The notes beneath the pieces were generated by a model, which ran no database searches, had not been told where the DNA came from, and was given only the letters and a program-made list of their open reading frames with translations. Shown here one piece after another: positions 236 through 15,415 of a stretch of DNA of 64,000 nt. The stretch comes from a virus (lineage: Duplodnaviria > Heunggongvirae > Uroviricota > Caudoviricetes), in the IMG/VR virus record IMGVR_UViG_3300010373_001364, positions 112,116 through 176,115 of that record. One strand, given 5' to 3'. The first letter of the stretch is position 1, and every line of letters starts with the position of its first letter. The translations under genes were made by a program, and so were the position numbers.

Positions 236-247
236 TTTGGGGGTATT

Positions 248-1897
248 ATGACCGTATGGGACTTCATCATTGAGAGACTCCGTAAAGCCGGCGTTAGAGA
301 CGCTTTCGGACTCCCAGGAGACTATATTCTTGACTTCTACGACAAGACGCAGAACTCCAAGATCAAACTCATCACCTGTACTTCAGAATTAAATGCTTGT
401 TATGCTGCTGACGCCTACGCCAGGATCAACGGCATCGGTGTGGTGATGGCTACCTACTGTGTTGGTGGTTTTAGTCTCCTTAATGGTTTCGCCTGTGCCC
501 GCGCTGAAGAATCGCCACTTATCTTCATTTCCGGTTCTCCCGGTGTAAGGGAACGGCGGCAGGATCTTTGGCTACATCACACGGTAGCGGACACTTTTGA
601 TTCCCAGCACTATGTCTTCAAGAAGATGTCCTGCGCTCATACAATCCTCGACAACCCATCTCTGGCGGGATATGAGATTGACCGGGTGATTGATACCGTG
701 AAGGCGAAGAAGATGCCGGGGTACATCGAACTGCCCCGCGATCTGGTCAACTCTGTTATCACCTACGACTCTTGGTCTTTAGGCACACCTCCAGACCCAA
801 TGGTGAGCGATGAGGTCAATCTCCAAGAGGCGCTGACTGAAACTGTAGATTGGATCAATTCTTCTACCAGACCAGTGATCTTGGCTGGTGTTGAGATCGC
901 CCGTTACGGCTTCGGTAAGCAGTTGATTAAGTTTGCTGAGCAGAAGAACATTCCTGTTGCCACAACGCTTTTAGGAAAGAGTGTCGTTAACGAGAAACAC
1001 CCATTGTCCCTTGGCGTGTTCTGTGGTGGTTTATCAAATGATGTGGCAGAAGAAGCCATCAATAATTCCGACTGTATTATTGCTCTTGGTGTGCTGATGA
1101 CGGACGTACATTTCGGATTCACGCCTAGCAGATTGTTAAGAAGGAATATGATTCTGTCTACCTGTCATGAGATGCGTATTCGGAATCACTCTTTCAATAA
1201 AGTGACTTTTGTTGATTTCTTCAAGAATTTGATCAAGTCAGATGTCTTCGAGAGAGAAGAACACCCCCCCAGGAAGATTGATGATTCCCCCTTCCGCCCG
1301 GTGGAAGATAGGAAGTTGACGACAGCCCGTCTTTTTGAGAAAATCAGAACAACCGTCACCGATAACATGGCTATCGTTTCAGACGTGGGTGATAGTATGT
1401 TTGGGGCTGCGGATTTAGATACTGCTGCTAATCACTTTTTCTGCCCGGCTTTCTATACTACAATGGGCACCTCGATCCCAGGAGCCTTGGGCATTCAGAT
1501 TGCCGACAAGAACATTAGACCATTGGTTATAGTGGGCGATGGTGCTTTTCAGATGAATGCTCCAGAACTCAGTACCATTGGTCGTTTGGACCTGAACCCG
1601 ATTGTGGTGGTCTTAAACAACCAGGGCTACCTTACGGAGAGAATGTTCAAAGATGGTCCTTATAACGACATTGCAGATTGGAACTACCATAAGTACCCTG
1701 ATATGATGGGTCTAGGTGCTGGTGCGAAAGTGACAACAGAGGGTGAGCTTGAGGCGGCGATGAATGTTGCTTTGGCAAGCAAGACGCTTTTCGTCATCAA
1801 CGCCGTGGTAGATAAGCACGATGCTACCAACGCCGTGAAGCGGGTTATGGGCGGCTTGGCGAGGAAGGGTGGTTTCAGTAATGAAAAGAATGCATAA
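248..1897 (+). CDS. Thiamine-diphosphate-dependent enzyme of the acetolactate synthase / pyruvate decarboxylase / YerE family
   Basis: 549 aa. ATG at 248 follows GGGGG. C-terminal ThDP-binding signature IVGDGAFQMN...VVLNNQGY (GDG-x24-NN). N-terminal Pyr-domain motifs (GLPGDYIL, ELNACYAADAYAR). Length and three-domain layout typical of ALS-like enzymes. Confidence 0.8.
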   Translation: MTVWDFIIERLRKAGVRDAFGLPGDYILDFYDKTQNSKIKLITCTSELNACYAADAYARINGIGVVMATYCVGGFSLLNGFACARAEESPLIFISGSPGVRERRQDLWLHHTVADTFDSQHYVFKKMSCAHTILDNPSLAGYEIDRVIDTVKAKKMPGYIELPRDLVNSVITYDSWSLGTPPDPMVSDEVNLQEALTETVDWINSSTRPVILAGVEIARYGFGKQLIKFAEQKNIPVATTLLGKSVVNEKHPLSLGVFCGGLSNDVAEEAINNSDCIIALGVLMTDVHFGFTPSRLLRRNMILSTCHEMRIRNHSFNKVTFVDFFKNLIKSDVFEREEHPPRKIDDSPFRPVEDRKLTTARLFEKIRTTVTDNMAIVSDVGDSMFGAADLDTAANHFFCPAFYTTMGTSIPGALGIQIADKNIRPLVIVGDGAFQMNAPELSTIGRLDLNPIVVVLNNQGYLTERMFKDGPYNDIADWNYHKYPDMMGLGAGAKVTTEGELEAAMNVALASKTLFVINAVVDKHDATNAVKRVMGGLARKGGFSNEKNA

Positions 1898-2177
1898 GAC
1901 GAATGGCAACATGAGCGGTCAACACCGCCGTACCAAATGGACGAACCGGCACTTCAAAGGTCGTCCCGATGTTAGCGAACACTTCAGGAAGCTGTGGTGG
2001 GCAGACCCTGCCAGGCTCACAAACGAACAACTGTTGATCTGTCTCAAGGACTTTAAGGCTTGCGAAGCGTACTACAACGACCAAGAGAACCGTGACCGGA
2101 AAGAACGGGGCTACTGGAGAGAAAGTAGGCGTGAAGTGGAAGCCGAGATAAAGAGACGAGGGGCGACAGTTGAGTGA
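1881..2177 (+). CDS. hypothetical basic protein (98 aa)
   Basis: ATG at 1881 overlaps the end of the upstream gene. Lys/Arg-rich. No motif recognised. Confidence 0.4.
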   Translation: MKRMHKTNGNMSGQHRRTKWTNRHFKGRPDVSEHFRKLWWADPARLTNEQLLICLKDFKACEAYYNDQENRDRKERGYWRESRREVEAEIKRRGATVE

Positions 2178-2187
2178 GGAGTTTGCT

Positions 2188-2835
2188 ATGGATTTCGTTG
2201 GTCCGTACCCTTCACAGGGTTATTCAGATAGCCTGTTGACACTTACTCGGTTAGTTCAACAAGTGGCTAAGCCGGGTATGTTGTGTTTAGAAGTTGGTTC
2301 TTGGGTTGGATACAGTTCCTACCACATTGGGAAGATCGTACAGAAAAACAATGGGCTATTGTTCTGCGTGGATTGGTGGCGGGGTTCCGAAGGTGTTCCA
2401 GAACTACTGAAAGCTGCGGAAGCCAATGATATCTTTTCTTATTTTCAAACCAACATAAGGAATGCCGGTTTGGTTGATGTCGTTTTACCCCTGAAGATGC
2501 GTTCGGAACAGGCGGCTCTTATTCTGAAGGATGGCATTTTCGATTTGATCTACATTGACGGCTGTCATTTGTATCAAGAAGTAAAGAAGGACATCGCCCT
2601 TTATCAAGGTAAAGTCAAATCTCCTGGCATTCTGTGTGGACATGACTGCTTGGGTAAGTATGAAAATTTGAATGCGGATTTGATTGAGGGGAACTTGGAT
2701 AAAAACCATGTGCTATATTCAGAAGGCAGAGGATGCCATCCGGGTGTCGTAAAGGCAGTGCATGAGGCGTTTCAAAATTACGAAGTGGAAAATGAGGTTT
2801 GGTGGATCAAGAAGGATGGGGTGATAAGTGAGTGA
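2188..2835 (+). CDS. Class I SAM-dependent methyltransferase (sugar O-/C-methyltransferase-like)
   Basis: Motif I LEVGSWVGYSS, acidic end of beta-2 (CVDWW) and motif IYIDGCH. ATG 2188 lies in frame inside the longer alt-start ORF 2170-2835. Confidence 0.6.
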   Translation: MDFVGPYPSQGYSDSLLTLTRLVQQVAKPGMLCLEVGSWVGYSSYHIGKIVQKNNGLLFCVDWWRGSEGVPELLKAAEANDIFSYFQTNIRNAGLVDVVLPLKMRSEQAALILKDGIFDLIYIDGCHLYQEVKKDIALYQGKVKSPGILCGHDCLGKYENLNADLIEGNLDKNHVLYSEGRGCHPGVVKAVHEAFQNYEVENEVWWIKKDGVISE

Positions 2836-3238
2836 AGAATTGCCGATCTCTTACGAAGAGATCGTTGAAAAAGCCAACGCCTGCTTCCACAAAACTATGG
2901 CGGATGTTGAGGAGTACGATAGAAGGCGTAAGCGTGTGGTGTCTGAGGCGTGGTTTGATAAGGATGGTAGAACCCTTGGGGTTTTGACGCACTCTGATCG
3001 CTGTTTTGTGATGTACATGGACAAGGCGCGTTGTGAGGAAAGTTGGATCATAACCGACCCCATTACCAGTGAACCAGACGTGGAAATATGGTTTGACCTA
3101 GATAATGGACAGATGGACATGCACAAGAGATTCTACACCACTTCGGCAGCTATTGCTTTTAAGGTGGTGGAGCATTTTGTAAAGACGGGGGAAATGTTGT
3201 CCTCTGTTAACTGGCTAGAAGGTAACAAGGTTTCCTGA
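2828..3238 (+). CDS. hypothetical protein (136 aa, GTG start)
   Basis: ORF fills the gap between the methyltransferase and infC. GTG start overlaps the upstream stop. No motif. Confidence 0.4.
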   Translation: MSEELPISYEEIVEKANACFHKTMADVEEYDRRRKRVVSEAWFDKDGRTLGVLTHSDRCFVMYMDKARCEESWIITDPITSEPDVEIWFDLDNGQMDMHKRFYTTSAAIAFKVVEHFVKTGEMLSSVNWLEGNKVS

Positions 3239-3250
3239 AAGAAGGAGAAA

Positions 3251-3766
3251 ATGACTGCTAACCCGCAGAAGAGGTATTTGAGAGTCAATCACCAGATCAA
3301 CGTCCCACAGGTTCGTCTCTTCGTTGAAGATCAGCCTGTGGGCGTTGTCAGTATTGAAGAAGCTCGACGTAGAGCTTATGATCTGGGACTGGATCTTGTA
3401 GAAACAGTGCCTCATGCGAAACCTCCGGTATGCAAGATCCTCGACTTTGGCAAGTACAAGTACGAAGAGAAGATACGCAAGAAGGAGGAAACAAGGAAGC
3501 AGAAGACTGTTACTTCTAAGGAAATCCAATTGCGCTACTGCATTGGCGATCATGACCTTGAAACCAAAGTCAACGCCATGAAGAAGTTCCTTGAGGAGAA
3601 GCGTCAGGTTCGCATCGTTATGAAGTTCAAGAACCGCGAGATGATGTTCAAAAAGCAAGGCGAGGAGTTACTCAAGAAGGTTGCCACCATGATCGAGGAC
3701 GTTGGCACCCTTGTGCCGCCGAAGTTGGAAGGCAAGAACCTCGTCGCACAGGTGAACCCCAAATGA
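3251..3766 (+). CDS. infC: Translation initiation factor IF-3
   Basis: 171 aa. AAGGAG RBS 5 nt before ATG 3251. Sequence matches bacterial IF-3 N and C domains (INHQINVPQVRLF..., GLDLVE..., KILDFGKYKYEEKIRKKE..., KEIQLRYCIGDHDLETK..., VRIVMKFKNREM). Confidence 0.85.
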   Translation: MTANPQKRYLRVNHQINVPQVRLFVEDQPVGVVSIEEARRRAYDLGLDLVETVPHAKPPVCKILDFGKYKYEEKIRKKEETRKQKTVTSKEIQLRYCIGDHDLETKVNAMKKFLEEKRQVRIVMKFKNREMMFKKQGEELLKKVATMIEDVGTLVPPKLEGKNLVAQVNPK

Positions 3767-4110
3767 TAGACAAGAAGGTGTCTGGATTCGGCTACTGCTC
3801 ATCTTTGGGACATAAGTACGTTGGTATTTACAAAAATGCCGATGATAGGTATTATGTTAAGATCGATTACTTCCGTAGCAGTAAGACCTTCGGTAGTCTG
3901 GAGGATCAAAAAGGGCTATGGGCTTGTGTAGCAGAAGTCGAGCGGGATCTGGTCGAAATGCAGGGATTCAATGATCGACGCAAAAGTGAATCTGAAGGAG
4001 GAGGTTCTATCTGTCCAGAGCCTCCTCTACGAAAATCTATTGAAGAAGACGGGAATCAACAAGGTTCAACCGCGACAGCGCCCTCCGGGTATACTTGCGA
4101 AGATTGCTGA
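3763..4110 (+). CDS. hypothetical protein (115 aa)
   Basis: ATG 3763 overlaps the infC stop (ATGA). C-terminal third is low-complexity and overlaps the next ORF in another frame. Confidence 0.4.
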   Translation: MIDKKVSGFGYCSSLGHKYVGIYKNADDRYYVKIDYFRSSKTFGSLEDQKGLWACVAEVERDLVEMQGFNDRRKSESEGGGSICPEPPLRKSIEEDGNQQGSTATAPSGYTCEDC

Positions 4111-5314
4111 TCTTCCGCTTCACAAAATAGAAAGTTGTTTTGGTAACTTCGGCATTCAACTCAGAAAGTTGGTTGAATACTTCAACCTAGACCATCCTTG
4201 CTTACAGCCTGTCGTTGGTCTGTTCGAGCATACTACCGTCTCAGACAAGATGGAAGATATTCTGTCTTTATATGAATTAGCAAATATCTTCAATGCCCCT
4301 AACATCATTTCTTTGGTTAACAGGTCGGTCAATGAGACTCGCGTAGCCGTAGAAGTCGATAGTCTCTTGGATGAACATTTCCCCGTCCGTGCCATCGTGG
4401 ACCCAAAGGTGCGTAACGAGTTTCGTAAAGGAAGTAAGCTGGCAAGAAACGCCGGCAGCGTCTATTTCTCCGAGTTTGAAACGGATGCTGAGGGCTGGTC
4501 GAAACATCCCTCATCACTGAGATATTACATCCGGCTAAACGATGAGCCTACCGGCGATACTGAGAGGTATAAACGCATTGTCCATAGGTTTCATGAGCTT
4601 GGTATGGAAAATCAAGCCAATACTCTCCTTGCGCATCTGAATTTAGCTCTTAAAAAAAGGGAGACGTACTGTGGATTTCAGTGCGTAGACGTGGATGCTT
4701 TAATTGCTGTGATGGGGAAGGTCCACGGTTTCACCAATCACGGCAAGTCCGTTTCATTGTCGGTGGACAACAATCCGGTAATGGTGAAGTTCTTATTGCA
4801 ATCCCTTTGTCTATCGCCGAAAATACTCAAAGAGATCATGGAGTGGGTAGACGAGAAGTGGATTGTTGATGACCCCACTACGCTCCTAGAGGCTCTAGAC
4901 TGTACCGGCAACTACGGGGATTGGGAAGATGTGGTAAGGTTCATCTCTAGGAAGGGACCGTTTTTTACCTATCGGGCTAGAGCTTACATGGCATCTAACC
5001 CCATTGTTAGTAGACTTCTGTCGGTAGACACCACGGGTATTCTCGATCAGTTGGACAGATTCCATGATTACGGATATCTTCCTATCTTCGATCATTTCTT
5101 GCTACTGGTTCCCTCAGTGGGTGTAACCGATTACTTCTACAACGAAAGGCACATGGGTTTTTTCATTTTCGACGGTAAGACGATAAGAAGTTTTGATAGG
5201 AGGGAAGATGCTTCTGTCTTTTTGGACTTCTTGATGATAAAGCATCGGATGGTTTTCCCTGTTCTCATTGGTCAAAAAGATGACCAGCAGTATCCGATTG
5301 GGTATTGCATATAA
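3971..5314 (+). CDS. hypothetical protein (447 aa; start uncertain)
   Basis: Long ORF with globular-looking composition. Start could be 3971 or a downstream ATG. Overlaps the preceding ORF by up to 140 nt. Confidence 0.5.
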   Translation: MIDAKVNLKEEVLSVQSLLYENLLKKTGINKVQPRQRPPGILAKIADLPLHKIESCFGNFGIQLRKLVEYFNLDHPCLQPVVGLFEHTTVSDKMEDILSLYELANIFNAPNIISLVNRSVNETRVAVEVDSLLDEHFPVRAIVDPKVRNEFRKGSKLARNAGSVYFSEFETDAEGWSKHPSSLRYYIRLNDEPTGDTERYKRIVHRFHELGMENQANTLLAHLNLALKKRETYCGFQCVDVDALIAVMGKVHGFTNHGKSVSLSVDNNPVMVKFLLQSLCLSPKILKEIMEWVDEKWIVDDPTTLLEALDCTGNYGDWEDVVRFISRKGPFFTYRARAYMASNPIVSRLLSVDTTGILDQLDRFHDYGYLPIFDHFLLLVPSVGVTDYFYNERHMGFFIFDGKTIRSFDRREDASVFLDFLMIKHRMVFPVLIGQKDDQQYPIGYCI

Positions 5315-5327
5315 CATTTGGAGGCAA

Positions 5328-6311
5328 ATGAACATTCTGATTACAGGTGGCGCAGGCTACATCGGCAGTGTTTTGGTCGATTATATTCTTTCGCAGCCTT
5401 GGAAGGTTGCTCAGACGGGTTTTAAGGTTCCTCAAGTCAACATCAGAATCATTGACAACTTGATGTACAAACAAGACGGTTTGATTTATTTCTGTAGCCT
5501 GAAGCACAAGGACTGTTTTGACTTCATCTATGGCGATGTCCGAGACACGGATTTCCTACTCAAGCAAGCTGATTGGGCGGATGTGGTGATCCCCCTTGCC
5601 GCCATCGTGGGTATGCCAGCCTGCGAACGTGATAAGTGTGGTGCGGGTCAAATCAACCAGATGCAAGTTTTTGAACTTGCACACGCTTGTTACAAGACGA
5701 ACAAGAAGATTTTGTATCCAAATACCAACAGCGGTTATGGTCTAGGTCTTGGCACCACATACTGTACCGAAGATACACCACTGACGCCAATTAGCACCTA
5801 CGGCAAGACCAAGTGCGAAGCTGAAAAGGCGGTTCTGGATTGCGGAGGCATTGCTTTCCGCCTTGCTACAGTTTTTGGGGTATCTCCCAGGATGCGATTG
5901 GATTTATTGGTAAATGACTTCACTTACAAGGCGGTCACGGACGGTTATGTTGTGCTTTTTGAGAAGGACTTCAAGAGGAACTACATCCATGTTCGCGACG
6001 TAGCAAAGGCGTTTTGCCACATGATTACGGATTATGACCAGCACAGGGGGCAGGTGTTCAACATGGGTCTTTCAGATGCCAATTTGAGTAAATTGGAGTT
6101 GTGTCAAAAGATCAAGGAACAGGTTCCGGGTTTCTCAATCCAAGTAGATGAGATTCGTAAAGACCCGGACCAAAGGAACTACATCGTTTCCAACGAGAAG
6201 ATTGAGAAGACAGGCTGGATTCCAGAAGTCAGTTTAGAAGCAGGGATCGCAGAACTCATCAAGGCTTACAAGATCATCCCCAATGTGTCAAAGAAGTACG
6301 CCAATGTGTGA
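5328..6311 (+). CDS. NAD-dependent nucleotide-sugar epimerase/dehydratase (extended SDR)
   Basis: GGAGG RBS then ATG 5328. N-terminal Rossmann motif MNILITGGAGYIGS. Catalytic YxxxK (STYGKTK). 328 aa. Confidence 0.8.
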   Translation: MNILITGGAGYIGSVLVDYILSQPWKVAQTGFKVPQVNIRIIDNLMYKQDGLIYFCSLKHKDCFDFIYGDVRDTDFLLKQADWADVVIPLAAIVGMPACERDKCGAGQINQMQVFELAHACYKTNKKILYPNTNSGYGLGLGTTYCTEDTPLTPISTYGKTKCEAEKAVLDCGGIAFRLATVFGVSPRMRLDLLVNDFTYKAVTDGYVVLFEKDFKRNYIHVRDVAKAFCHMITDYDQHRGQVFNMGLSDANLSKLELCQKIKEQVPGFSIQVDEIRKDPDQRNYIVSNEKIEKTGWIPEVSLEAGIAELIKAYKIIPNVSKKYANV

Positions 6312-6322
6312 TTGGAGATAAC

Positions 6323-6943
6323 ATGAAGACGACAAAATATCCCCCGTCTTTCTTCTCACAGTACCGGAAGTATCTGGAAAGTCCAGAAGTCAAAAGGCAA
6401 CACCGTCGAGTCTTTGAGGCATTCCGCGCGATGGCTGAGTTGGAATTGTCTCGTTGGAGTGTTGTTGATCTAGGTTGTGGCACTTGTGAGTTTGGAAGAT
6501 ACGTTATGGATCAGGGATTGGGCAGTTATGTTGGCGTTGACTTAGATTTGTCTAATGCTGATCATTCAGTGGCGATTGCCTTGATAGAGGGCGACTACAA
6601 CAACCTGTCTGCACAAGACAATGCTTTTGTTAGCACATCCAATGTCTTTGTTAGCCTATTTTCTACCGAGGTGCATTGCTCTTTCAAGGAGAGATATGCT
6701 TTGTATGAAAGACTTTTCCAGAACGGCATGGAAGCCGCTTTGGTTGCTGGATTTGTCTACAACGCCCATCCCAACGAAGCTGAAGTGATGGAGAACTTCG
6801 GTGAGTCACACTACCAAAGTGTCGAGCCTCTCAGGTTAATTACTTCCTCTTTTGAAGAGATACGCCTTGAGTGTAAGGTGCCTGCTGGTATGTTTGAGTC
6901 GGAATTTGTAGAGGTTTGGAAAATTCTTTTGAGGCGCAAATGA
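6323..6943 (+). CDS. Class I SAM-dependent methyltransferase
   Basis: GGAG RBS then ATG 6323. Motif I VVDLGCGTCEF. Acidic beta-2 end (YVGVDLD). Confidence 0.65.
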   Translation: MKTTKYPPSFFSQYRKYLESPEVKRQHRRVFEAFRAMAELELSRWSVVDLGCGTCEFGRYVMDQGLGSYVGVDLDLSNADHSVAIALIEGDYNNLSAQDNAFVSTSNVFVSLFSTEVHCSFKERYALYERLFQNGMEAALVAGFVYNAHPNEAEVMENFGESHYQSVEPLRLITSSFEEIRLECKVPAGMFESEFVEVWKILLRRK

Positions 6944-7416
6944 AGAAGGTTAAAATCTATACCGATGGGTCTTGCTCCCAGCGTGCCTCCTCGACAGGGA
7001 AAGGTGGGTATGGCATACTCTTATTATTTGAAGATGGGGCAGAGATTGAACTCTCTGGTAATGATGCAGAAACCACCAACAACCGCATGGAGATGATGGC
7101 GGCGATTGTCGGCTTGGAGTACCTTAAAGAGACTTGCGATGTCGAGCTTTACTCTGACAGTGCTTATCTAGTTGAGTGCTTCTTGCAGAAGTGGTTTGAG
7201 AAGTGGTTTAGGAACGGTTGGATCAATAGTTCCGGCAAGCCGGTTGCCAATAAAGACCTGTGGATCAGACTGATGAAGAGTTTCAGTGGTCATAAGGTCA
7301 AATTCATCAAGGTGAAGGGTCACTCTGATGATGAGTTGAATAACAGGTGCGATGAGATCGCCAGAAAAGCAATGGAGAGGTTAGATGTTGGTGTCGTGCA
7401 TCTTAGTGAGTCATAA
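6940..7416 (+). CDS. rnhA: Ribonuclease HI
   Basis: ATG 6940 overlaps the upstream stop (ATGA). KVKIYTDGSC...GGYG start, acidic catalytic residues (DG, E in ETTNNRMEMMAAI, D in YSDS, KVKGHSDDELN...CDEIARKA) as in RNase HI. Confidence 0.85.
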   Translation: MKKVKIYTDGSCSQRASSTGKGGYGILLLFEDGAEIELSGNDAETTNNRMEMMAAIVGLEYLKETCDVELYSDSAYLVECFLQKWFEKWFRNGWINSSGKPVANKDLWIRLMKSFSGHKVKFIKVKGHSDDELNNRCDEIARKAMERLDVGVVHLSES

Positions 7417-8083: not shown

Positions 8084-8089
8084 GGTAAA

Positions 8090-9037
8090 ATGGGTTGCGA
8101 GAAACTGAATGAAAACGAAGTTGCTGAAGTAATTACCAAAAATGTAGCACTCGAAGAAGCAAAAAAAGTCGATGAGAGGTGGTCGAAAGCCATTGAGTCT
8201 ATCGGCAAAATTAAAGATAAGTTCAAGCGTTCTTGTATTTGTCTCCTGTTGGAAAACCAGCGGTTAATGAACGAGGCTTCCACTTCTACGGAGATGAACT
8301 CTCCAGAGACTAAGAAGAAGCTCATCGATCTGGCTGCGGCGGTGTACCCTAATCTACTTGCCTGGAATCTTGTTTCTGTCCAACCCCTTGTTGGTCCTAC
8401 CGGATTGATCTATCATCTGAGTCGTAGAATTAGCCCGGTCAACAATGAACCGATGTTGACCATTGATTCTCAAGATATTGTTGCCAGGACGAGAAGGCTG
8501 AAGAGGCAGGTTTGTGACGATTTCGGTCCCAAGGATGTAGCACAGGCGGTAATCGATGACTTGGATACCGAGGTCTTGAAAGACCTGTCCAACAACTGCG
8601 CAACGGTTGGCTGCGTCAACCTGAAGGCTTACAAATCAGACAAGGCTGTTCGTTTGGCAGAGGCTTTGGAAAGTGTGATTAAAGACGCCAAGGAGAAGTT
8701 TAACGAGAAGATGTTTGAAGGATGCGAGCCGAACTGGATGGTCGTGAATGATAAACTTCACAGGCGTTTGAAGCCTGCCTTTGATTCTCTTGATCTTTGC
8801 AAAAACCTCTCTATATACCCTCACAAGGGTGTTGAGGGCGTTTTGATCGGGCGCAAGGGGGAATCTTACATGGACAGCGGTTATGTACTTTCGCCCTATG
8901 TTCCGTTCACCTTGACGCCAGCCATCAATTTTGGTATTTTCGGGTTGCTCACCCGTTACGGCAAGAAGCTGCTCCCGAATGGGGCATCTTATTACAGTCG
9001 GGTGACAGTCTTCGATGACGTTCCCGAAGAGGAGTGA
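8090..9037 (+). CDS. T4 gp23/gp24-family (major-capsid-type) protein, unusually short (315 aa)
   Basis: Strong local resemblance to the T4 gp23 N-terminal region: ENQ...NSPE and AAAVYPNLLAWNLVSVQPLVGPTGLIYHL versus T4 IPNLIAFDICGVQPMNSPTGQVFAL. Much shorter than gp23 (521 aa). Confidence 0.4.
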   Translation: MGCEKLNENEVAEVITKNVALEEAKKVDERWSKAIESIGKIKDKFKRSCICLLLENQRLMNEASTSTEMNSPETKKKLIDLAAAVYPNLLAWNLVSVQPLVGPTGLIYHLSRRISPVNNEPMLTIDSQDIVARTRRLKRQVCDDFGPKDVAQAVIDDLDTEVLKDLSNNCATVGCVNLKAYKSDKAVRLAEALESVIKDAKEKFNEKMFEGCEPNWMVVNDKLHRRLKPAFDSLDLCKNLSIYPHKGVEGVLIGRKGESYMDSGYVLSPYVPFTLTPAINFGIFGLLTRYGKKLLPNGASYYSRVTVFDDVPEEE

Positions 9038-9038
9038 A

Positions 9039-10616
9039 ATGGATAGAAGGCTTGATGTACTTTTTGTTCACCCAGGAGATGCACATCTGCTGTATCAGGG
9101 TTTGAGCAACAAGTTTAGCGCCATAGAGACACCTACTTGGTGTCTCTTGCTGGCACAGTCTTGTCGCTCTAAAGGCTTTGGCGTAGCCATCTTGGACTGC
9201 GACGCTGAACGCCTGAATTACGAGCAGGCGGTGACTCGCATTAAGGAAGCCAATCCGCGATTGGTGTGCTTTGTCGTTTATGGACAAAACCCGAATGCTG
9301 GCACCACAAAGATGACTGGTGCTATTGGAGTTGCGGCTAAATTGAAGACGGAATACCCAGAGTATCCCGTCTGCTTTGTCGGTTCGCACACCAGTGCCCT
9401 CCCCAGAGAGGTGCTTGCCTACCCGTTCGTAGACTTTGTTCTGCTGAACGAGGGCGTCTATGCCTTGAGGAACCTTCTGGCGACCGATCTGAAGACCGAT
9501 CTTCAGAGTATTAAGGGCATTGGTTGGAAGGAAAGCGCTCCACTTAAGATGCACGCTGATCAGTGGTGCTGCGAGTCGAATAAGTGTCTCTGTGTTTTGA
9601 ATGCACCAGAGCGTGTGGTTCCAAATGAGTTGATGGATGTGGACTTGCCGGGTTCTGCCTGGGATTTGTTGCCCTACAACAAGCAGCCCTTTGATCTTTA
9701 TCGCTCCTGTAACTGGCACGCGGACTTCCATGAAGACAAGAGGCGTCCTTATGCTGCCATCTACTCTTCCTTGGGGTGCCGCTTCAAATGCGACTTCTGC
9801 ATGATCAATATCTTGAATCGTGTAGATAACAGCGACGGCGTGAACGCTGCTCACTCTCCGAACATGAGATTTTGGTCGCCTAATTTCATGTTGAAGGAGT
9901 TTGACAAGTTAGTCAATGCCGGGGTTACGACCATCCGCATCAGCGACGAGATGTTCTTTCTTGACAAGAGATACTTTGAGCCATTGCTACAAGGATTGGT
10001 AGATCGTGGTTATGGTAAGGAACTGCTGATGTGGGCGTATGCTCGCGTGGATACGGTGCGAGCCAAATACCTTGACTTATTCAACAAGGCTGGTGTGAAG
10101 TGGCTGGCGCTGGGCATTGAGGCTGCCGACCAGAAGATCCGCAAAGAGATTACCAAGGGCACCTATGAAGAAGTAGACATCCGAGAGATCGTCAAGCAAA
10201 TCGCAGATTCTGGAATCAGTACGATCTCCAACTACATCTTCGGTCTGCCGGATGACGACTACAACTCCATGAATGCCACCCTTGACCTGGCGTCGGAGTT
10301 GAATACAGAGATGGCGAATATGTACCCTTGCTTTGCTCTGCCGGGTTCGCCTCTCTATTATCAAGCAGGGCAAAAAGGATGGGCGTTGCCTCAAACATTC
10401 GAGGCTTGGTCCTTCCACTCTTACGAATGTTTGCCTCTTCCTACTAAGCACTTGAGTGCTGCGGAGGTATTACGCTTCCGTGATCGTGCTTGGGATATGT
10501 ACTTCAATCGTCCTGAGTACCATAAGGTAGTTGAGGACAAGTTCGGTAAGGTGGCAGTAGATCACATCAAAGAAATGGCGTCCATCAAACTCAAAAGAAG
10601 GCTGTTAGGAGATTGA
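9039..10616 (+). CDS. Cobalamin-binding radical SAM enzyme (class B radical SAM, methyltransferase-like)
   Basis: GAGGAG RBS then ATG 9039. N-terminal B12-binding-like Rossmann region (VLFVHPGD, AILDCDAE). Radical SAM cluster motif CRFKCDFC (Cx3Cx2C). 525 aa, typical of B12-rSAM. Confidence 0.8.
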   Translation: MDRRLDVLFVHPGDAHLLYQGLSNKFSAIETPTWCLLLAQSCRSKGFGVAILDCDAERLNYEQAVTRIKEANPRLVCFVVYGQNPNAGTTKMTGAIGVAAKLKTEYPEYPVCFVGSHTSALPREVLAYPFVDFVLLNEGVYALRNLLATDLKTDLQSIKGIGWKESAPLKMHADQWCCESNKCLCVLNAPERVVPNELMDVDLPGSAWDLLPYNKQPFDLYRSCNWHADFHEDKRRPYAAIYSSLGCRFKCDFCMINILNRVDNSDGVNAAHSPNMRFWSPNFMLKEFDKLVNAGVTTIRISDEMFFLDKRYFEPLLQGLVDRGYGKELLMWAYARVDTVRAKYLDLFNKAGVKWLALGIEAADQKIRKEITKGTYEEVDIREIVKQIADSGISTISNYIFGLPDDDYNSMNATLDLASELNTEMANMYPCFALPGSPLYYQAGQKGWALPQTFEAWSFHSYECLPLPTKHLSAAEVLRFRDRAWDMYFNRPEYHKVVEDKFGKVAVDHIKEMASIKLKRRLLGD

Positions 10617-10617
10617 T

Positions 10618-10986
10618 ATGCACGCAACTTTGCCCAAGGTACTACTCGCCCAGGAGATAAAGAAACGTATCGAGGATATGGAGGAGGGTGAGGAAGGCTC
10701 AGCCATGCCCTATGCTATGGCGGCTGATAATGAGGACCACTTATGGCTGGACCCCGGTGCCCTTGTAACCCTCAATGGTGATGGTACATTCCGTGTCCGT
10801 AGGTCCAGGGACGGCTATGAGGTGGCTGTCGATGTTGATTGCGCCTATCGCTGGGAGCGCGGCGAAGTCAATCACAATGGTGACTTGAATCAGTACACCG
10901 AGCCAGTTGTAAGGATCAAGGTACTTGAACATACTGAGTTTGACGTGCATAAGAACGGCTGCGTGGCGGGAAGGGTTCATGGATAA
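10618..10986 (+). CDS. hypothetical protein (122 aa)
   Basis: ATG overlaps the upstream stop (ATATG after TGA). Acidic. No motif. Confidence 0.5.
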   Translation: MHATLPKVLLAQEIKKRIEDMEEGEEGSAMPYAMAADNEDHLWLDPGALVTLNGDGTFRVRRSRDGYEVAVDVDCAYRWERGEVNHNGDLNQYTEPVVRIKVLEHTEFDVHKNGCVAGRVHG

Positions 10987-11254
10987 GTTCAAAGGGAAGT
11001 TCCAAGAAGCTTGTTGCACTAACCGCAGCATTGGCTATGGAAGGCTATGGGAGGAATATGAAGCTGGGTGGGAATACTATCACCACTGCTCCTGCCATAT
11101 CTGTGAGTTGCGTCGTCAAGAGAACGGTGTGACAAGATGTGTTGACAAATCTTGCGAGGGATGCAAGAATTTGAAGGAAGGCAAGAAGATCCGCAATTGG
11201 ATTGAGATGATCGAAGATACGATGCGCGGTGCCGATAAGGTGGAGAAAGAATGA
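10979..11254 (+). CDS. hypothetical Cys/His-rich protein (putative metal-binding)
   Basis: ATG 10979 overlaps the upstream stop. Clusters CCTNR, HHCSCHIC, CVDKSCEGC. Confidence 0.45.
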   Translation: MDKFKGKFQEACCTNRSIGYGRLWEEYEAGWEYYHHCSCHICELRRQENGVTRCVDKSCEGCKNLKEGKKIRNWIEMIEDTMRGADKVEKE

Positions 11255-11937
11255 AGGTAGATTTGACAGCAGCAGACCTCATTGCCTTTGAGGATGAGGT
11301 TTGTAAGCACTTTGCAGACAAGAAGATCCGCGCCCCTGTCCATCTGGATAATGGGAATGAGGAGCAATTGTCTCTTATTTTCCAACATCGTGTGGACGAA
11401 GATGACTGGATTTGTGGCTCTTGGCGTCAACACTACAAGTGCTTGCTCAAAGGTGTGCCCAAGGAAGAACTGATGCAGGCTATCTTAGAGGGCAAATCCA
11501 TCTCCTTATGTTTCCCTAAGTACAAGATCATATCTTCGGCGATTGTCGGCGGCATCTTGCCTGTGGCTGTGGGGATTGCCCTTGGCATTAAGAGGAAGGG
11601 CGGAACAAACAAGGTTGTGTGTTTTATGGGTGAAATGACTTCTGAGACAGGAGCCGCCCATGAGTGCATTAAATACAGTCAGAACCACGATCTTCCAATC
11701 TTGTTTGTCGTGGAAGATAACGGCAAAAGCGTTTGTACCCCCACCCTGCCTGTCTGGAACATGCAAAAACTAACCTATGGGAATGATTGCCAACACCCTA
11801 TAGTGAGTGCCTTGATCAAAGAAAAGGAAGGTATGTTGAAGGGTAGCGGTATTTATTGGGTCAGCCCAAAGGTACTTTATTACAAGTACAAGAGCAAGTA
11901 CCCACATGCGGGCGGTGGACAAAGAATAAATTTCTGA
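11251..11937 (+). CDS. ThDP-dependent dehydrogenase/transketolase E1-alpha-like subunit (truncated, 228 aa)
   Basis: ThDP-binding motif CFMGEMTSETGAAHE...DLPILFVVEDNG (GDG...NN-type). ATGA overlap with upstream gene. Confidence 0.65.
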   Translation: MKVDLTAADLIAFEDEVCKHFADKKIRAPVHLDNGNEEQLSLIFQHRVDEDDWICGSWRQHYKCLLKGVPKEELMQAILEGKSISLCFPKYKIISSAIVGGILPVAVGIALGIKRKGGTNKVVCFMGEMTSETGAAHECIKYSQNHDLPILFVVEDNGKSVCTPTLPVWNMQKLTYGNDCQHPIVSALIKEKEGMLKGSGIYWVSPKVLYYKYKSKYPHAGGGQRINF

Positions 11938-11944
11938 GGCTGTC

Positions 11945-12157
11945 GTGAAAAAACCCATTGCGGTAGTGTGCGGCGACGGATGGGAAGGCTTGTATGTCAA
12001 TGGCAAGCTGGTAGAGGAGAACCACCATCTGACCCTGTTCGATTTCGTGAAGTTAACTGGCATTAAATGTGAGTTCATAGAACCGGACATGGAGTGGCTA
12101 GACGAGCGTGGTCGTCTACCAGAGAAACTTGAAGATGTGAAAGTGTCAAAAGAATAA
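11945..12157 (+). CDS. hypothetical protein (70 aa, GTG start)
   Basis: Small ORF filling the gap. No motif. Confidence 0.35.
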   Translation: MKKPIAVVCGDGWEGLYVNGKLVEENHHLTLFDFVKLTGIKCEFIEPDMEWLDERGRLPEKLEDVKVSKE

Positions 12158-12165
12158 GAGGCAAC

Positions 12166-12531
12166 ATGGCGAAAGCAAAGACAACGAAAACGACCAAGAC
12201 CAAGGCAAAGACGAAGAAGGTCAATGTCGCACCACCAGCACCAGAACCAGCAAAGAAGCCTGGTATGGATGGTTTCTGGGGTTCCAAGGCGGTTGAAGAT
12301 TTCATCAAGAACCGGATCGGCTTCCTGGCAGAAGGCTGTACCTTCGACTACATGCCTTACCATGAAGATATTCGTGCGGGGCGTAGTCAATTCGCCCGCT
12401 ACGACATCTTGTGTCATCATAAGGATGGCGAGTTGATTCTGCACTATAAGGTCAACTTCGATTCCTCTGGTAGGTTCGTGCCCGATCCAGTCGTTGACAA
12501 CACCGTGGCTCTTAGAATGATGAAGGGATAA
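12166..12531 (+). CDS. Lysine-rich histone H1-like / nucleoid-associated-like protein
   Basis: N-terminus MAKAKTTKTTKTKAKTKKVNVAPPAPEPAKKPG (KT/AK repeats, PAPEP) followed by a globular C-terminal half. Confidence 0.5.
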   Translation: MAKAKTTKTTKTKAKTKKVNVAPPAPEPAKKPGMDGFWGSKAVEDFIKNRIGFLAEGCTFDYMPYHEDIRAGRSQFARYDILCHHKDGELILHYKVNFDSSGRFVPDPVVDNTVALRMMKG

Positions 12532-12532
12532 C

Positions 12533-12709
12533 ATGGGACACAATCGAGCAGGGGCAAACCGCAAGAAGCGGCTGAAGCGGCGCAAGAGGATGGAGCAACA
12601 GTTGGAGAGAAAGCTCCGCAGGGAGATTCTTACCCTGACACATTTCTTGAAACACCGCTATGGCTTGGATCAACATCACCACCATCGCGATCACCGGGAG
12701 GAAAAGTGA
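12533..12709 (+). CDS. small arginine-rich basic protein (58 aa)
   Basis: ATG 12533 lies 1 nt after the upstream stop. NRKKRLKRRKRMEQQLERKLRRE then HHHHRDH. Its stop overlaps the next GTG start (GTGA). Below the 60-aa cutoff of the ORF track. Confidence 0.3.
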   Translation: MGHNRAGANRKKRLKRRKRMEQQLERKLRREILTLTHFLKHRYGLDQHHHHRDHREEK

Positions 12710-12966
12710 AGTTCAAAGTATGGGGAACCAATACTCATCCCTCAGATGAGTTAGATGACATTGAAGGTCTTCATGCTCAACTCCTTGGCTATTCTTTTTT
12801 GAGGGAGTTTGAAGCAGATAACATGGTTGAGGCGTGTCGTGCGGCAAGAGAATGCGAGAGATCCGAATATCGTTATCTTCGTGTAACAGGTGGTGGTTTT
12901 GCAGTGGAGTTTGACTCAAGGGTTGAGTTCCCAGAGGGTGAATTAACTACTGCATTGAGGGGGTGA
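12706..12966 (+). CDS. hypothetical protein (86 aa)
   Basis: GTG start overlapping the upstream stop. Acidic. Confidence 0.45.
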   Translation: MKFKVWGTNTHPSDELDDIEGLHAQLLGYSFLREFEADNMVEACRAARECERSEYRYLRVTGGGFAVEFDSRVEFPEGELTTALRG

Positions 12967-12967
12967 A

Positions 12968-13291
12968 ATGGGTGTATTGATTTCAATCAACAATAAGTGT
13001 GTTGCGGATTGTGCAGAACCTACAGATGCTTGGGACTGGCTGATCTCTGAACATGCTCTACCAGAGGGTTTATTCCAGAAGGTTGATGATGAACATGAGT
13101 TGATCAGACCAACTTGGTCGGATCTTCCGCTGAAGTTCTTTTGGAAGGGTCACAGATATATGGTGTCGAAAGTAGACAACTTGAGGAGACAACATGAACA
13201 TGAATGCCCGGTTCTTGAAAGAAGCCCAGGAACTCGGAAAGAGATGGGCAAATTCTTCCCTTTTGCAGGGAATGACGGCAACAATGAGTAA
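12968..13291 (+). CDS. hypothetical protein (107 aa)
   Basis: ATG 1 nt after the upstream stop. C-terminal part overlaps the next ORF and may be read-through. Confidence 0.35.
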   Translation: MGVLISINNKCVADCAEPTDAWDWLISEHALPEGLFQKVDDEHELIRPTWSDLPLKFFWKGHRYMVSKVDNLRRQHEHECPVLERSPGTRKEMGKFFPFAGNDGNNE

Positions 13292-13421
13292 ATCTGAGAT
13301 GGCTGCGATGCTTGAGTGTGAGCGTCTGCACAATGAAACAGGCATTTGGGATTGTTGTGATCACTGTCGAGAACGAGAAAAACAAGAAAAAGGCGAATCA
13401 AATGAAAACTCTGGCTCTTAG
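13194..13421 (+). CDS. hypothetical protein (75 aa)
   Basis: GAGGAG RBS then ATG 13194. Cys/His pairs (CCDHC). Confidence 0.4.
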   Translation: MNMNARFLKEAQELGKRWANSSLLQGMTATMSKSEMAAMLECERLHNETGIWDCCDHCREREKQEKGESNENSGS

Positions 13422-14070
13422 TCTGTTGTTTTGTTTGGCTGGTTTTGCTTCTGCTCAAGACTTCACCACAAATCACGGTCCCAGCGTGGGCTATGAGAAC
13501 ATTCACAATCACAAGGAACCCAACAAAGAGCGTCGTCATGACAGGGACCATAGTCATCCACCGGCTCTCCCATTGAAGAAGACTTATCCTCCTCTATTTA
13601 GCCACATCAAGAGGGGCAGTAAGAAAGGCTTTGAAGGTATGGAGCTTGTTTCTTCCGTCAAGAAGGTTGGTGATAAGTGGGAGTACACTTATGTCCTCAA
13701 GAACATAGGCAAGAGAAAGACTTGGATGGTTGGTAGTTCTTTGCCTGATCGCGCCATTGGTTTAAGCAGCGGTATTAGAGATGTCGCCCATTTTTATCGC
13801 TTAAAGCCTGGAAAGTCTATCACCATCACCGTAACCCATAAAGACCCTCCGGTTGAATATCAGGCTGTCATCCAGTGTTTCGACAAAGATCGCCATAGTG
13901 GTTTCAAGGATTGGTATAAGGAAAATGGTGTTAAGATAACTGGCGTTCAACCTACCTACTACTTCCAGATGGCAGGCGGCGTGAACGGTTGGCTCCCCAA
14001 GGGACTCCAGCCAAGACAGCTTCCTAAGAAACTAACTCCGCTTGGACCTCTCCCTGGTGGCAAGAAATGA
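13402..14070 (+). CDS. secreted protein with N-terminal signal peptide
   Basis: MKTLALSLLFCLAGFASAQ is a classic Sec signal with an AxA cleavage site. 222 aa. Confidence 0.55.
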   Translation: MKTLALSLLFCLAGFASAQDFTTNHGPSVGYENIHNHKEPNKERRHDRDHSHPPALPLKKTYPPLFSHIKRGSKKGFEGMELVSSVKKVGDKWEYTYVLKNIGKRKTWMVGSSLPDRAIGLSSGIRDVAHFYRLKPGKSITITVTHKDPPVEYQAVIQCFDKDRHSGFKDWYKENGVKITGVQPTYYFQMAGGVNGWLPKGLQPRQLPKKLTPLGPLPGGKK

Positions 14071-14285
14071 ACAGCATTTCTGGTGAATGTGTTTGGTGCA
14101 ATGGGACTCATAGGATTCTGTGGTGTTACAGGTGTTGCGGTTGGTTTTGCCACAGATGTCTTGAGTCCCATTGCCATGAGGTGTATAAAGAAAGAAGGAA
14201 GCAAATAGACTTATTCTTTGCTTCCTCTGAATTCCAAGAATGGTTGAATGAATACAAAGAGGGGAAGTGTGAAGACGTTCTATAA
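14067..14285 (+). CDS. Cys-rich zinc-finger-like small protein
   Basis: ATGA overlap. CVWCNG...CYRCCGWFCHRCLESHCH. Confidence 0.5.
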   Translation: MNSISGECVWCNGTHRILWCYRCCGWFCHRCLESHCHEVYKERRKQIDLFFASSEFQEWLNEYKEGKCEDVL

Positions 14286-14898
14286 CCCGGATAGCCGCAA
14301 CAGTCTCTACGGGCACTCGCGAGAAGTTGAGTCCTACTTCGATGAGTTGTCCAGGGCGATGACTTGGCTAGGCAAGAAAGATAAAACCATCTTCATCGGT
14401 CAGGCGGTTGGTTATCCCGGCACTGCCATGTACAACACCCTCAAAGAAGTTCCTGAAGAAAAGCGGTTAGAACTTCCAGTAGCCGAAGAGATGCAGATGG
14501 GCATGTCTTTGGGTCTTTCCCTTTCCGGCTATGTTCCCATCAGCATCTTCCCCAGGTGGAATTTCTTGCTCTGCGCTATGAGCAGTCTCATCAACCATCT
14601 GGACAAGTACCCCCTCATCTCCGACTACAAGCCCCACGTTATCATTCGCACCGGCATTGGCAGTGTGGTGCCTCTGGACCCACAGTTCCAGCACAAAGGT
14701 GACTTCACAGAAGCTATTAAAAGCATGTGCAGGACCGTGAAGGTACAGAGGATTGAACACCCACATGAGGTGGTGAAGGCTTATGCGGAAGCCTATCACA
14801 TGCCGGGTGTTTACATCATGTGCGAGGTTTCTGACTTCTTGAACGAAGACTTCAGGAAGGACTATGAAAGGTTCAGGCTGACTTATGGAGGTGAGTAG
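14248..14898 (+). CDS. ThDP-dependent E1-beta / transketolase pyrimidine-binding-domain-like subunit (216 aa)
   Basis: KTIFIGQAVGYPGTAMY...LELPVAEEMQMGMSLGLSLSGYVP matches the E1-beta Pyr-domain pattern (R..DTPI.E.G..G...G.A..G.RP). Lacks the C-terminal transketolase_C domain. Start may be GTG 14269. Confidence 0.6.
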   Translation: MNTKRGSVKTFYNPDSRNSLYGHSREVESYFDELSRAMTWLGKKDKTIFIGQAVGYPGTAMYNTLKEVPEEKRLELPVAEEMQMGMSLGLSLSGYVPISIFPRWNFLLCAMSSLINHLDKYPLISDYKPHVIIRTGIGSVVPLDPQFQHKGDFTEAIKSMCRTVKVQRIEHPHEVVKAYAEAYHMPGVYIMCEVSDFLNEDFRKDYERFRLTYGGE

Positions 14899-15233: not shown

Positions 15234-15415
15234 TATACGAGGATGATTACGGCGGCTTGTTTTCCCCCTATATTCTCACCAAGGTGTGTGAGAGCGAAAA
15301 GGAGGCTTGGGACTACGCCAAGGAAAAACTCGCAAGTGTTGTGCAGTCCGGCTACGCAGGATCACTAGATACTTCAGCTTACCCTTATTATCATGGAGGG
15401 AAGTACAGTGATTAG
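15212..15415 (+). CDS. hypothetical protein (67 aa)
   Basis: ATG start with 22-nt overlap. Acidic. Confidence 0.4.
   Translation: MEKQVWLIYEDDYGGLFSPYILTKVCESEKEAWDYAKEKLASVVQSGYAGSLDTSAYPYYHGGKYSD

Follow-up and report, generated by a model that had tools for sequence, protein, structure and literature searches.

The window analysed here, a 64,000-nt part of a huge-phage genome (IMG/VR record IMGVR_UViG_3300010373_001364), carries close together the genes for a short-chain dehydrogenase/reductase (SDR), a family 2 glycosyltransferase (GT2), a radical S-adenosylmethionine enzyme with a B12-binding domain (rSAM), and two short proteins resembling the alpha and beta subunits of an E1-type, thiamine diphosphate (ThDP)-dependent enzyme (Table 1). 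A preliminary description of this DNA had read a 15-kb set of genes, and with it a DegT-family aminotransferase further on, as one pathway for a branched, C-methylated amino sugar; the five genes listed above held together as such a set, while a larger ThDP enzyme (248-1897) had to be withdrawn from it and the aminotransferase call given up. The open reading frames (ORFs) of that description were all recovered, displaced by a few codons at most, and agree with the gene calls of L030, a public contig 99-100% identical to the window. The ORFs were scanned with Pfam, NCBIfam and PHROG profiles and compared with PDB sequences (phmmer), and the structure of the rSAM enzyme was predicted. Pfam bore out most of the domain assignments; those of the methyltransferase at 6323, the HAD protein and the GT2 at 21771 were sub-threshold or weak.

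Table 1. Coordinates of features in the window, with the evidence for each
Position	Strand	Feature	Evidence or remark
248-1897		ThDP enzyme	Pfam TPP_enzyme_N/M/C
2170/2188-2835	+	Class I methyltransferase	Pfam Methyltransf_24, 65.8 bits; outside island, peripheral
3251-3766		Translation initiation factor IF3	Not a sugar gene
5315-19111		Inserted island	Backbone synteny with related huge phages
5268/5328-6311	+	SDR; candidate Cj1427-like nucleotide-heptose C4-dehydrogenase	Pfam Epimerase/SDR
6308/6323-6943		Putative methyltransferase	Sub-threshold methyltransferase matches only
6916-7416		RNase H	Not a sugar gene
7385-8083	+	GT2	Pfam Glycos_transf_2, 31.6 bits (cutoff 23.3)
8090-9037		gp23-N-terminus-like protein	Not a sugar gene
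9015/9039-10616	+	B12-binding and Radical_SAM enzyme (rSAM)	CX3CX2C at residues 247-254
11251-11937	+	Short E1-alpha-like subunit (PP domain)	Pfam E1_dh, 54 bits
14248-14898	+	Short E1-beta-like subunit (Pyr domain)	Pfam Transket_pyr, 19.7 (cutoff 27)
17119-17745	+	VOC/glyoxalase-family protein	Pfam Glyoxalase_4; inside island
20789-21748	-	Fcl-like SDR	NCBIfam GDP-L-fucose synthase, 195 bits, below cutoff of 500
21771-22706	+	Possible GT2 of second block	Pfam Glycos_transf_2, 22.7 bits, just under cutoff
23300-24247	-	Glycosyltransferase-like protein	Pfam Glyco_trans_1_2, 68.6 bits
24270		HAD candidate	Sub-threshold
24861-25997	+	DegT-family protein	Pfam DegT_DnrJ_EryC1, 295 bits

The SDR, the GT2, the rSAM enzyme and the two E1 halves are 47-61% identical to the products of one compact gene cluster, with a range of 45-66% for the bacterial loci. 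An alignment-based scan of species genomes with the rSAM enzyme gave at least 440 matches, and 80 loci were read; with three contigs of related phages and two duplicate bacterial loci these made up a set of 85 loci anchored on the rSAM gene, in which the window genes were searched for within 10 kb of that gene (many of the loci end at contig edges). A match to E1-alpha at any identity was present in 64 of the 85 (median identity 52%), orthologues at 45-56% being found in 57 of the 80 bacterial loci; E1-beta was present in 59 (median 55%), a DegT-like gene in 71, the SDR in 48 (median 49%) and the GT2 in 22 (48% identity). In 19 of the 80 bacterial loci the rSAM gene is directly followed by that of the GT2, with identities of 45-51%. 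Clustering of this sub-set of genes is far beyond chance, and when every ORF in 81 loci was clustered the same conserved families emerged. The canonical order, taken from a Limisphaerales contig, runs FAD oxidoreductase, SDR, NTP-transferase, NUDIX, GHMP kinase, E1-alpha, E1-beta, DegT-like, rSAM and GT2, followed by further glycosyltransferases and a methyltransferase; Spirulina has NTP-transferase, rSAM, short E1_dh, short Transket_pyr and SDR, and a Verrucomicrobiia genome E1_dh, Transket_pyr, DegT and rSAM. The carriers (at least 440 bacterial species genomes) include Verrucomicrobiota, Planctomycetota, Nitrospira, Kuenenia, methanotrophs and cyanobacteria; among those that can be cultured are Methylomonas rivi WSC-6, Piscinibacter sp. 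MQ-18 and Spirulina sp. CCY15215. Among the neighbours in the bacterial clusters are an HddA-like kinase, an HddC/ManC-like guanylyltransferase and a SIS (GmhA-like) protein.

The module proved to be common in viruses as well, and the combination is not peculiar to this phage. An alignment-based scan of IMG/VR with the rSAM enzyme gave at least 310 contigs carrying the same module, and it was compact in all 80 viral loci that were read: an SDR was found in 61, E1-alpha in 61 (11 of them of transketolase type), E1-beta in 51, a ColD-like gene in 62, a GHMP kinase in 36 and an RmlC-like epimerase in 45, all no more than a few kb from the rSAM gene. On the 158-kb viral contig L151, T4-like portal, protease and major capsid genes stand immediately upstream of the module, and the genes of this capsid region have about 70% DNA identity to Pelagibacter phage Mosig and cyanophage S-RIM12. 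A separate 25 viral loci share the order SDR, RmlC-like, E1-alpha, a gene of no assigned family, SDR, SDR and E1-beta, and cyanophages P-TIM68 and S-SM2 carry a fused E1-like enzyme amid genes for phosphoheptose isomerase, heptose kinase/adenylyltransferase, epimerase and glycosyltransferase. Sugar-gene context and co-conservation of the homologues, the lack of which had been named beforehand as speaking against the pathway, were thus seen in bacteria, T4-like viral contigs and cyanophages alike. The phage module belongs to a large uncharacterised cluster family common to bacteria and phages. Other searches returned little: positions 1-15000 of the window had no megablast match among 50,697 phage records, tblastn of the rSAM enzyme against the same number of deposited phage records gave only Streptomyces phage SF3 (24% identity), and when IMG/VR was scanned with patterns from single sequences, neither the rSAM enzyme nor the 248-1897 enzyme gave a match, the alignment-based scan later yielding the 310 rSAM contigs.

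The closest "bacterial" homologue of the rSAM enzyme (66%) was encountered on L035 (CAYUMU010000001.1), a 318,631-bp contig binned as Pirellulales, on which none of the remaining module genes lies less than 10 kb away from it; L035 may be another huge phage binned as a bacterium.

How the genes came to lie where they do in the window is suggested by comparison with related huge phages. In LR756511 (a 595-kb phage) and L115 (a 633-kb contig), a homologue of the window gene at 3971-5314 is followed directly by a homologue of the Fe-S_biosyn gene at 19112-19450; in the window 13.8 kb lie between these two genes, and in L116 and L031 sugar genes are found between the same two backbone genes, as in the window. 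By this gene order, a conserved huge-phage backbone has here been interrupted by the insertion of an island some 14 kb long (5.3-19.1 kb). It contains the SDR, the GT2, a gp23-like gene, the rSAM gene, both E1 halves and a VOC-family gene, and together with two genes of the neighbouring block we infer that it encodes the nucleotide-sugar tailoring pathway.

The gp23-like protein (315 aa) resembles the N-terminus of T4 capsid protein gp23 over its first ~110 residues (Pfam Gp23, PHROG 138) and has no match beyond them. Its gene stands between those of the GT2 and the rSAM enzyme, as it also does in L031 and L116, and in T4-like viral contigs the genuine capsid gene is found some 4 kb upstream of this sugar module. 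The gene could be a relic of phage-to-phage transfer, or its product a target of glycosylation.

The two E1 halves were described earlier as a split alpha/beta pair within a sugar module that also has the rSAM, SDR and GT2, and this description was upheld; E1-alpha has the PP (diphosphate-binding) and E1-beta the Pyr (pyrimidine-binding) domain. E1-alpha has 228 aa and E1-beta 216 aa, and the Transketolase_C domain is absent by Pfam. Both match a single fused PHROG, 34187 (E1-alpha at 4-181, E1-beta at 237-389), and they are colinear with the fused gp190 of P-TIM68, E1-alpha corresponding to residues 2-171 and E1-beta to 214-342. We assign 14248-14898 as the Pyr half despite its sub-threshold Pfam score because of the match to PHROG 34187, the fused cyanophage proteins and the bacterial orthologues. 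The ThDP/Mg motif of E1-alpha (G-E-M-x26-D-N) and the cofactor-activating Glu of E1-beta (in PVAEE) are conserved in the orthologues. In some bacterial clusters the short pair is replaced by a full-length E1 pair (318 + 348 aa in L033), and in Methylomonas rivi and others by a split transketolase, with a SIS (GmhA-like) gene also present. The interchange of three ThDP architectures at one position points to one shared carboligation on a keto-sugar. Pairs of this kind, AviB1/B2 and Pau11/12, have been implicated in two-carbon (C2) sugar branches (PMC4425429), and makers of 4-keto-sugars, a Cj1427-like SDR and a ColD-like dehydratase, co-occur with the E1 pair in most of the bacterial and viral loci. 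The most economical reading of the pair would be ThDP-dependent attachment of a two-carbon branch to a keto-sugar.

The stretch between the E1 halves (11945-14247) holds six or seven plus-strand ORFs, all small (58-252 aa) and none matching a known family; only 12166-12531 has a homologue in L031. The halves are adjacent in bacteria, and in other phages sugar genes or small ORFs intervene. Splitting of an E1 gene by an intron, intein or mobile element was considered and rejected: the bacterial orthologues are two adjacent genes, and the alpha ORF stops at the domain linker.

The SDR of the island matched 6VO6/6VO8 in the PDB search with 49% identity over 316 aa (phmmer E 3e-92; next PDB match 6e-15). 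6VO6 is a 313-aa Campylobacter jejuni protein, which we take to be Cj1427. Orthologues of the SDR are 46-58% identical in the bacterial and 42-61% in the viral clusters. Cj1427 oxidises GDP-heptose at C4, and together with a pyridoxal phosphate-dependent C3-dehydratase it gives GDP-3-deoxy-4-keto-heptose in vitro (PMC10680097). The SDR is likely to be a Cj1427-like GDP-heptose C4-dehydrogenase, which would furnish a 4-keto sugar. In 21 of 81 bacterial loci (for example L094 3210-4256 and L091 3022-4230), and in some viral ones, a DAO-family FAD oxidoreductase gene adjoins that of the Cj1427-like SDR; as a speculation, its product might re-oxidise 2-hydroxyglutarate to the 2-oxoglutarate co-substrate of a Cj1427-type dehydrogenase.

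The DegT-family protein, earlier called an aminotransferase, has His in the column of the Schiff-base Lys (FSFYVAHLI, compared with FSFNGNKII in aminotransferase 7b0m). This column holds His in ColD (His188) and Lys in the aminotransferases 7b0m and QdtB, and the DegT-like protein of the bacterial clusters, which is ColD-like (E 6e-50), has His there in 61 of 63 members. The best NCBIfam model for the window protein is RfbH (207 bits, compared with 198 for PseC). Since His replaces the Schiff-base Lys, we assign it as a putative ColD/RfbH-type, pyridoxamine phosphate (PMP)-dependent sugar 3-dehydratase, and because of the substitution the aminotransferase reading was rejected. With a dehydratase and no aminotransferase, the product is expected to be a deoxy sugar, and the "amino" part of the original claim falls. 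A GDP-colitose pathway was also considered for the second block and dropped, as there is no GDP-mannose dehydratase (GMD) and the only dehydrogenase is Cj1427-like.

The rSAM assignment was corroborated by Pfam (B12-binding 50 bits, Radical_SAM 54 bits) and by the motif CRFKCDFC. Its longer translation has 533 aa; the public gene call begins at 9039. The enzyme belongs to a family with thousands of members of ~507 aa, 58-66% identical across bacterial phyla. Among NCBIfam models HpnJ scored best (104 bits against a cutoff of 578), followed by PhpK and BchE (~63) and AprD4 (36 bits), and in the PDB sequence search only AprD4 and MgmA were retrieved (E 5e-5 to 2e-6). In the predicted structure (pLDDT, the per-residue confidence score, 75.5) the nearest fold was that of AprD4 (E 6e-19, TM-score 0.60-0.70), followed by TsrM, CysS, TokK and OxsB, the scores of AprD4 and TsrM being nearly equal (TM-score about 0.6). 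Most characterised B12-domain radical SAM enzymes are methyltransferases; AprD4 has a B12-like domain and is not known to use cobalamin. C-methylation of the GenK/Fom3 type, as the preliminary description had it, is one of several possibilities for an enzyme with HpnJ as best family and AprD4 as nearest fold. Some close homologues of 811-817 aa (P0011, P0014, P0019 and P0022) contain Hint/intein domains, and one such intein-bearing homologue shares a 37,691-bp contig with a homologue of the 248-1897 enzyme.

The 248-1897 enzyme had been likened to acetolactate synthase (ALS) and YerE and made a member of the sugar pathway, and neither part of this was sustained. Its best PDB matches (E 7e-80 to 3e-55) are KdcA, KivD and other decarboxylases, whose substrates are branched-chain keto acids, phenylpyruvate, indolepyruvate or pyruvate; enzymes of ALS type score far lower (E 4e-29 or weaker), and its best NCBIfam model is indolepyruvate/phenylpyruvate decarboxylase (321 bits). 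It has the motifs GLPGDY (Asp24, the catalytic Asp), TSELNA (Glu47, which activates the cofactor), His110-His111, GDG at 430-x26-NN and YLTERM (Glu464, the C-terminal Glu), which are decarboxylase hallmarks by the residue roles in Zymomonas pyruvate decarboxylase. By its sequence relationships the enzyme is of the pyruvate/indolepyruvate-decarboxylase type. Homologues 45-49% identical to it adjoin an IF3 homologue in LR756511 and L115. In 42 kb around the LR756511 gene no sugar genes were found by homology to window genes, and in 17.6 kb around the L115 gene no homologues of the window's sugar genes were found save a UDP-glucose/GDP-mannose dehydrogenase-like gene. In L031, conversely, the sugar genes are present and the decarboxylase gone; the two occur together in the window, L030 and L116, and each also occurs alone. 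Only one of the 85 rSAM-anchored loci has a match to it, the near-identical contig L030, and no bacterial cluster has one. Because its presence is independent of that of the sugar genes, and because its sequence is of decarboxylase type, we place it outside the pathway; it is co-conserved with IF3 instead.

An aldehyde dehydrogenase gene lies 2.3 kb from the decarboxylase gene in L115 (region 3965-13384), and the product of window 53380-54942 is 59% identical to it, which points to decarboxylase and aldehyde dehydrogenase as a separate pair that might convert a 2-oxo acid via the aldehyde to the acid. A gene with an indoleamine-dioxygenase (IDO) domain also lies nearby in L115, and hints at aromatic amino-acid metabolism.

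Taken together, it is reasonably probable, from homology and gene context, that the island encodes a nucleotide-sugar tailoring pathway leading to a 3-deoxy, C4-branched heptose derivative. The SDR would oxidise GDP-heptose to its 4-keto form, and the PMP enzyme of the neighbouring block would remove the 3-hydroxyl to give a 3-deoxy-4-keto sugar. The E1-alpha/E1-beta heteromer would then place a two-carbon unit on the C4 ketone, the donor most likely being pyruvate, as with YerE and AviB1/AviB2. A radical step on the branched intermediate would follow, with C-methylation by rSAM as the default and dehydration or C-C cyclisation as alternatives. The Fcl-like SDR, a candidate C4 or branch ketoreductase with homologues (23-34% identity) in 29 of the 80 bacterial loci, would reduce the leftover ketone, and the soluble GT2 and the other glycosyltransferases would pass the sugar to an acceptor on the virion or in the envelope of the host. 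Septacidin biosynthesis involves a heptose C3-epimerase of the VOC family, SepA (PMC9978623), and the VOC protein of the island, conserved in L031, is by analogy tentatively a pathway sugar epimerase. Outside the pathway stand the decarboxylase, RNase H, IF3 and the small ORFs that separate the E1 halves.

Several observations weigh against this proposal. No sugar-activating gene (kinase, nucleotidyltransferase or GmhA) was found among the window ORFs scanned, and the best NCBIfam models, HddA and HddC for the kinase and nucleotidyltransferase of the bacterial clusters and Fcl for the SDR at 20789-21748, all scored below their cutoffs. The ColD-like gene lies 10 kb away from the island; its product is about 30% identical to the bacterial-cluster protein, its best PDB matches are aminotransferases (7b0m, E 3e-56, compared with E 5e-34 for ColD), and it is mainly the His that speaks for its role. 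The short E1 pair is not of the same size as AviB1/B2 and is without the C-terminal domain found in a true E1-beta. The rSAM enzyme reaches the cutoff of no NCBIfam model, methylase models giving 63 bits at most. The identity of 6VO6 with Cj1427 is presumed, and backed by organism, length and deposited name only; and substrate, donor and product of the pathway are all inferred.

Of the competing explanations, the one that departs least from the proposed pathway keeps its skeleton and makes the rSAM enzyme something other than a methyltransferase: an AprD4-like diol dehydratase acting on a heptose C6-C7 diol, or an HpnJ/BchE-like enzyme that forms or rearranges C-C bonds. We regard this as possible, though not as what we would expect. 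It agrees with the ranking of NCBIfam models and with AprD4 as the nearest solved fold, and radical SAM carbocycle formation has been proposed for calditol and for the cyclitol ether of bacteriohopanetetrol (BHT) (PMC9092360); the near-equality of the AprD4 and TsrM structural scores, the moderate confidence of the model, sequence matches that all fall far under the family cutoffs, and the prevalence of methylation among characterised B12-domain radical SAM enzymes tell against it. A bolder form, which we think unlikely, is that an acetyl branch is set on C4 of 3-deoxy-4-keto-heptose and that rSAM then closes C7-C8, which would give the carbocyclic C9 skeleton of caryose (4,8-cyclo-3,9-dideoxy-nonose) or else a bicyclic or branched nonose related to it, with which the phages might decorate their capsid or remodel the host surface. 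The biosynthesis of caryose has been stated to be unknown (PMC9092360), and were this reading true, the rSAM family of hundreds of bacterial and viral genomes would gain a function.

The remaining alternatives change the pathway itself or its destination. That the pathway is real and its sugar goes on phage DNA, as a base hypermodification, in place of a protein or envelope glycan, is quite unlikely: two dCMP-deaminase-like genes, MazG and PhoH are nearby, the glycosyltransferases are all soluble, and phage glycosyltransferases are known to glycosylate DNA (PMC7029224), but the GT2 has close relatives in the bacterial clusters, which lie amid GT2/GT4 and methyltransferase genes typical of glycan synthesis, and the island showed no gene for a hydroxymethylase or for base modification. 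Very unlikely is the original proposal in full, by which a branched amino sugar with a C-methyl group arises from the joint action of all the ThDP enzymes, a YerE-like 248-1897 among them, with a GenK/Fom3-type C-methylase and a DegT aminotransferase. Every domain it names does occur within 26 kb, and in the closest relatives, L030 and L116, the 248-1897 gene is on the same contigs as the sugar genes; against it stand the decarboxylase-type residues of that enzyme, its persistence beside IF3 where the sugar genes are missing and its absence from L031 and the bacterial clusters, the His of the DegT-like protein, and the failure of rSAM to reach a methylase cutoff. Scarcely credible, finally, is the view that unrelated auxiliary genes simply lie close together in a gene-dense phage, the E1 pair serving 2-oxo-acid or acetoin metabolism. 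IF3, RNase H, the gp23-like gene and many small ORFs are indeed interspersed, the E1 halves are 2.3 kb apart, and NCBIfam names them, at low scores, as pyruvate dehydrogenase E1 subunits; yet bacterial and viral loci in their hundreds have the same five or six families side by side, no annotated locus has an E2 or E3 partner, and the subunits are short by comparison with the real E1 of L033. A phosphonate pathway (Fom3 with phosphonopyruvate decarboxylase) was likewise considered and set aside, as there is no phosphoenolpyruvate (PEP) mutase and the ThDP subunits are of E1/transketolase type in sugar clusters.

Further genes of the window deserve mention. The methyltransferase at 2188-2835 has a homologue elsewhere on L031 and in few bacterial loci, and is not in the conserved core. 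In the second block, the possible GT2 has a 60% identical homologue on L031, where the Glyco_trans_1_2 protein also has one; no glycosyltransferase of the window has a predicted membrane segment. Paralogous dCMP/cytidine-deaminase-like genes (22791-23318 and 26514-27014), 3 kb apart, flank this block, and homologues are also kept upstream of the decarboxylase gene in L115, L116 and L031. Directly after the ColD-like gene, 25999-26532 encodes a protein of 177 aa for which Pfam, NCBIfam and the PDB gave no match; of the 80 viral rSAM-module loci, 23 have a counterpart of its residues 47-177 at 63-78% identity and three more have one at 45-46%. The window also encodes IF3, a full DnaJ, MazG and PhoH (the last three at 27581-28717, 30112-30621 and 33444-34232), a set typical of huge phages that supports its viral origin; related contigs encode ribosomal protein S21 and peptide deformylase as well. 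A protein with an Amidoligase_2 domain and a 651-aa SPFH/Band 7 protein are encoded at 38627-39592 and 58864-60819. Neither Pfam nor PHROG gave a match for several large ORFs (957, 744 and 516 aa), and a PHROG scan of the large ORFs at 35-60 kb gave no structural hallmark.

If the proposed pathway is right, it joins three chemistries, namely heptose C4 oxidation with 3-deoxygenation, ThDP-dependent carboligation and a B12-domain radical SAM step, in a new route to branched higher-carbon sugars, and would provide a first function for a conserved rSAM family and for a minimal two-subunit ThDP enzyme. It would also mean that large aquatic phages carry complete multi-step glycan-tailoring modules, with a bearing on virion glycosylation, host-surface remodelling and superinfection exclusion. 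Hypervariable regions of pelagimyophages are known to carry radical SAM cassettes and lipopolysaccharide-type genes, for which the literature searched gave no pathway-level interpretation (PMC7029224); a broad search for papers on B12, ThDP and branched sugars yielded nothing specific.

Each part of the module resembles, and departs from, a known system. Like TsrM, TokK, CysS, GenK, Fom3, AprD4 and HpnJ, the rSAM enzyme combines a Rossmann B12-like domain at its N-terminus with a radical SAM core, and it has the CX3CX2C motif; its model has a TM-score of ~0.5-0.7 to its structural neighbours, but its sequence is at most 17% identical to any solved member, and it forms a highly conserved family of its own. 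The phage E1 pair is like AviB1/AviB2 and Pau11/Pau12 in having separate alpha (PP) and beta (Pyr) ThDP subunits encoded in a deoxysugar cluster. The likeness is one of subunit architecture. The phage pair is far shorter (228 + 216 aa, compared with 325 + 345 aa) and without Transketolase_C, its ThDP motif is GEM...DN and not GDG...NN, and its context is of GDP-heptose type whereas that of AviB1/AviB2 is a TDP-hexose antibiotic cluster. P-TIM68 gp190 and S-SM2 gp198 similarly place a phage-borne E1-like enzyme among heptose/nucleotide-sugar genes; there the halves are fused (381-402 aa, annotated as "transketolase central region-containing protein"), whereas in the window they are separate.

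For the sugar itself, the C. jejuni GDP-heptose set, consisting of the Cj1427 C4-dehydrogenase, the HS:5 C3-dehydratase, the Cj1430 epimerase and the Cj1428 reductase, offers a close parallel: homologues of a ColD-like dehydratase, an RmlC-like epimerase and an Fcl-like reductase co-occur with the module, and the bacterial clusters include HddA-, HddC- and GmhA-like genes. The C. jejuni pathways, however, end at epimerisation and reduction and have neither a ThDP enzyme nor a radical SAM enzyme (PMC10680097). ColD and RfbH share with the window DegT protein the DegT fold and the His in place of the Schiff-base Lys, although the probable substrate here is a heptose whereas ColD, a GDP-4-keto-6-deoxymannose 3-dehydratase, acts on 6-deoxymannose. 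YerE adds a C2 unit from pyruvate to CDP-4-keto-3,6-dideoxyglucose (PMC9306805), of which GDP-3-deoxy-4-keto-heptose is the heptose analogue, and yersiniose A formation runs, like the proposed pathway, from a PMP-dependent 3-dehydratase and a 3-deoxy-4-keto sugar through a ThDP-dependent C2 branch at C4 to reduction (PMC9306805). YerE is one ALS-like flavoprotein chain with a CDP-hexose as its substrate, whereas the module has a split enzyme of E1/transketolase type, GDP-heptose-like activating genes and an added rSAM. We regard the module as a variant of the known branched-sugar pathways, and the preliminary interpretation as partly supported.

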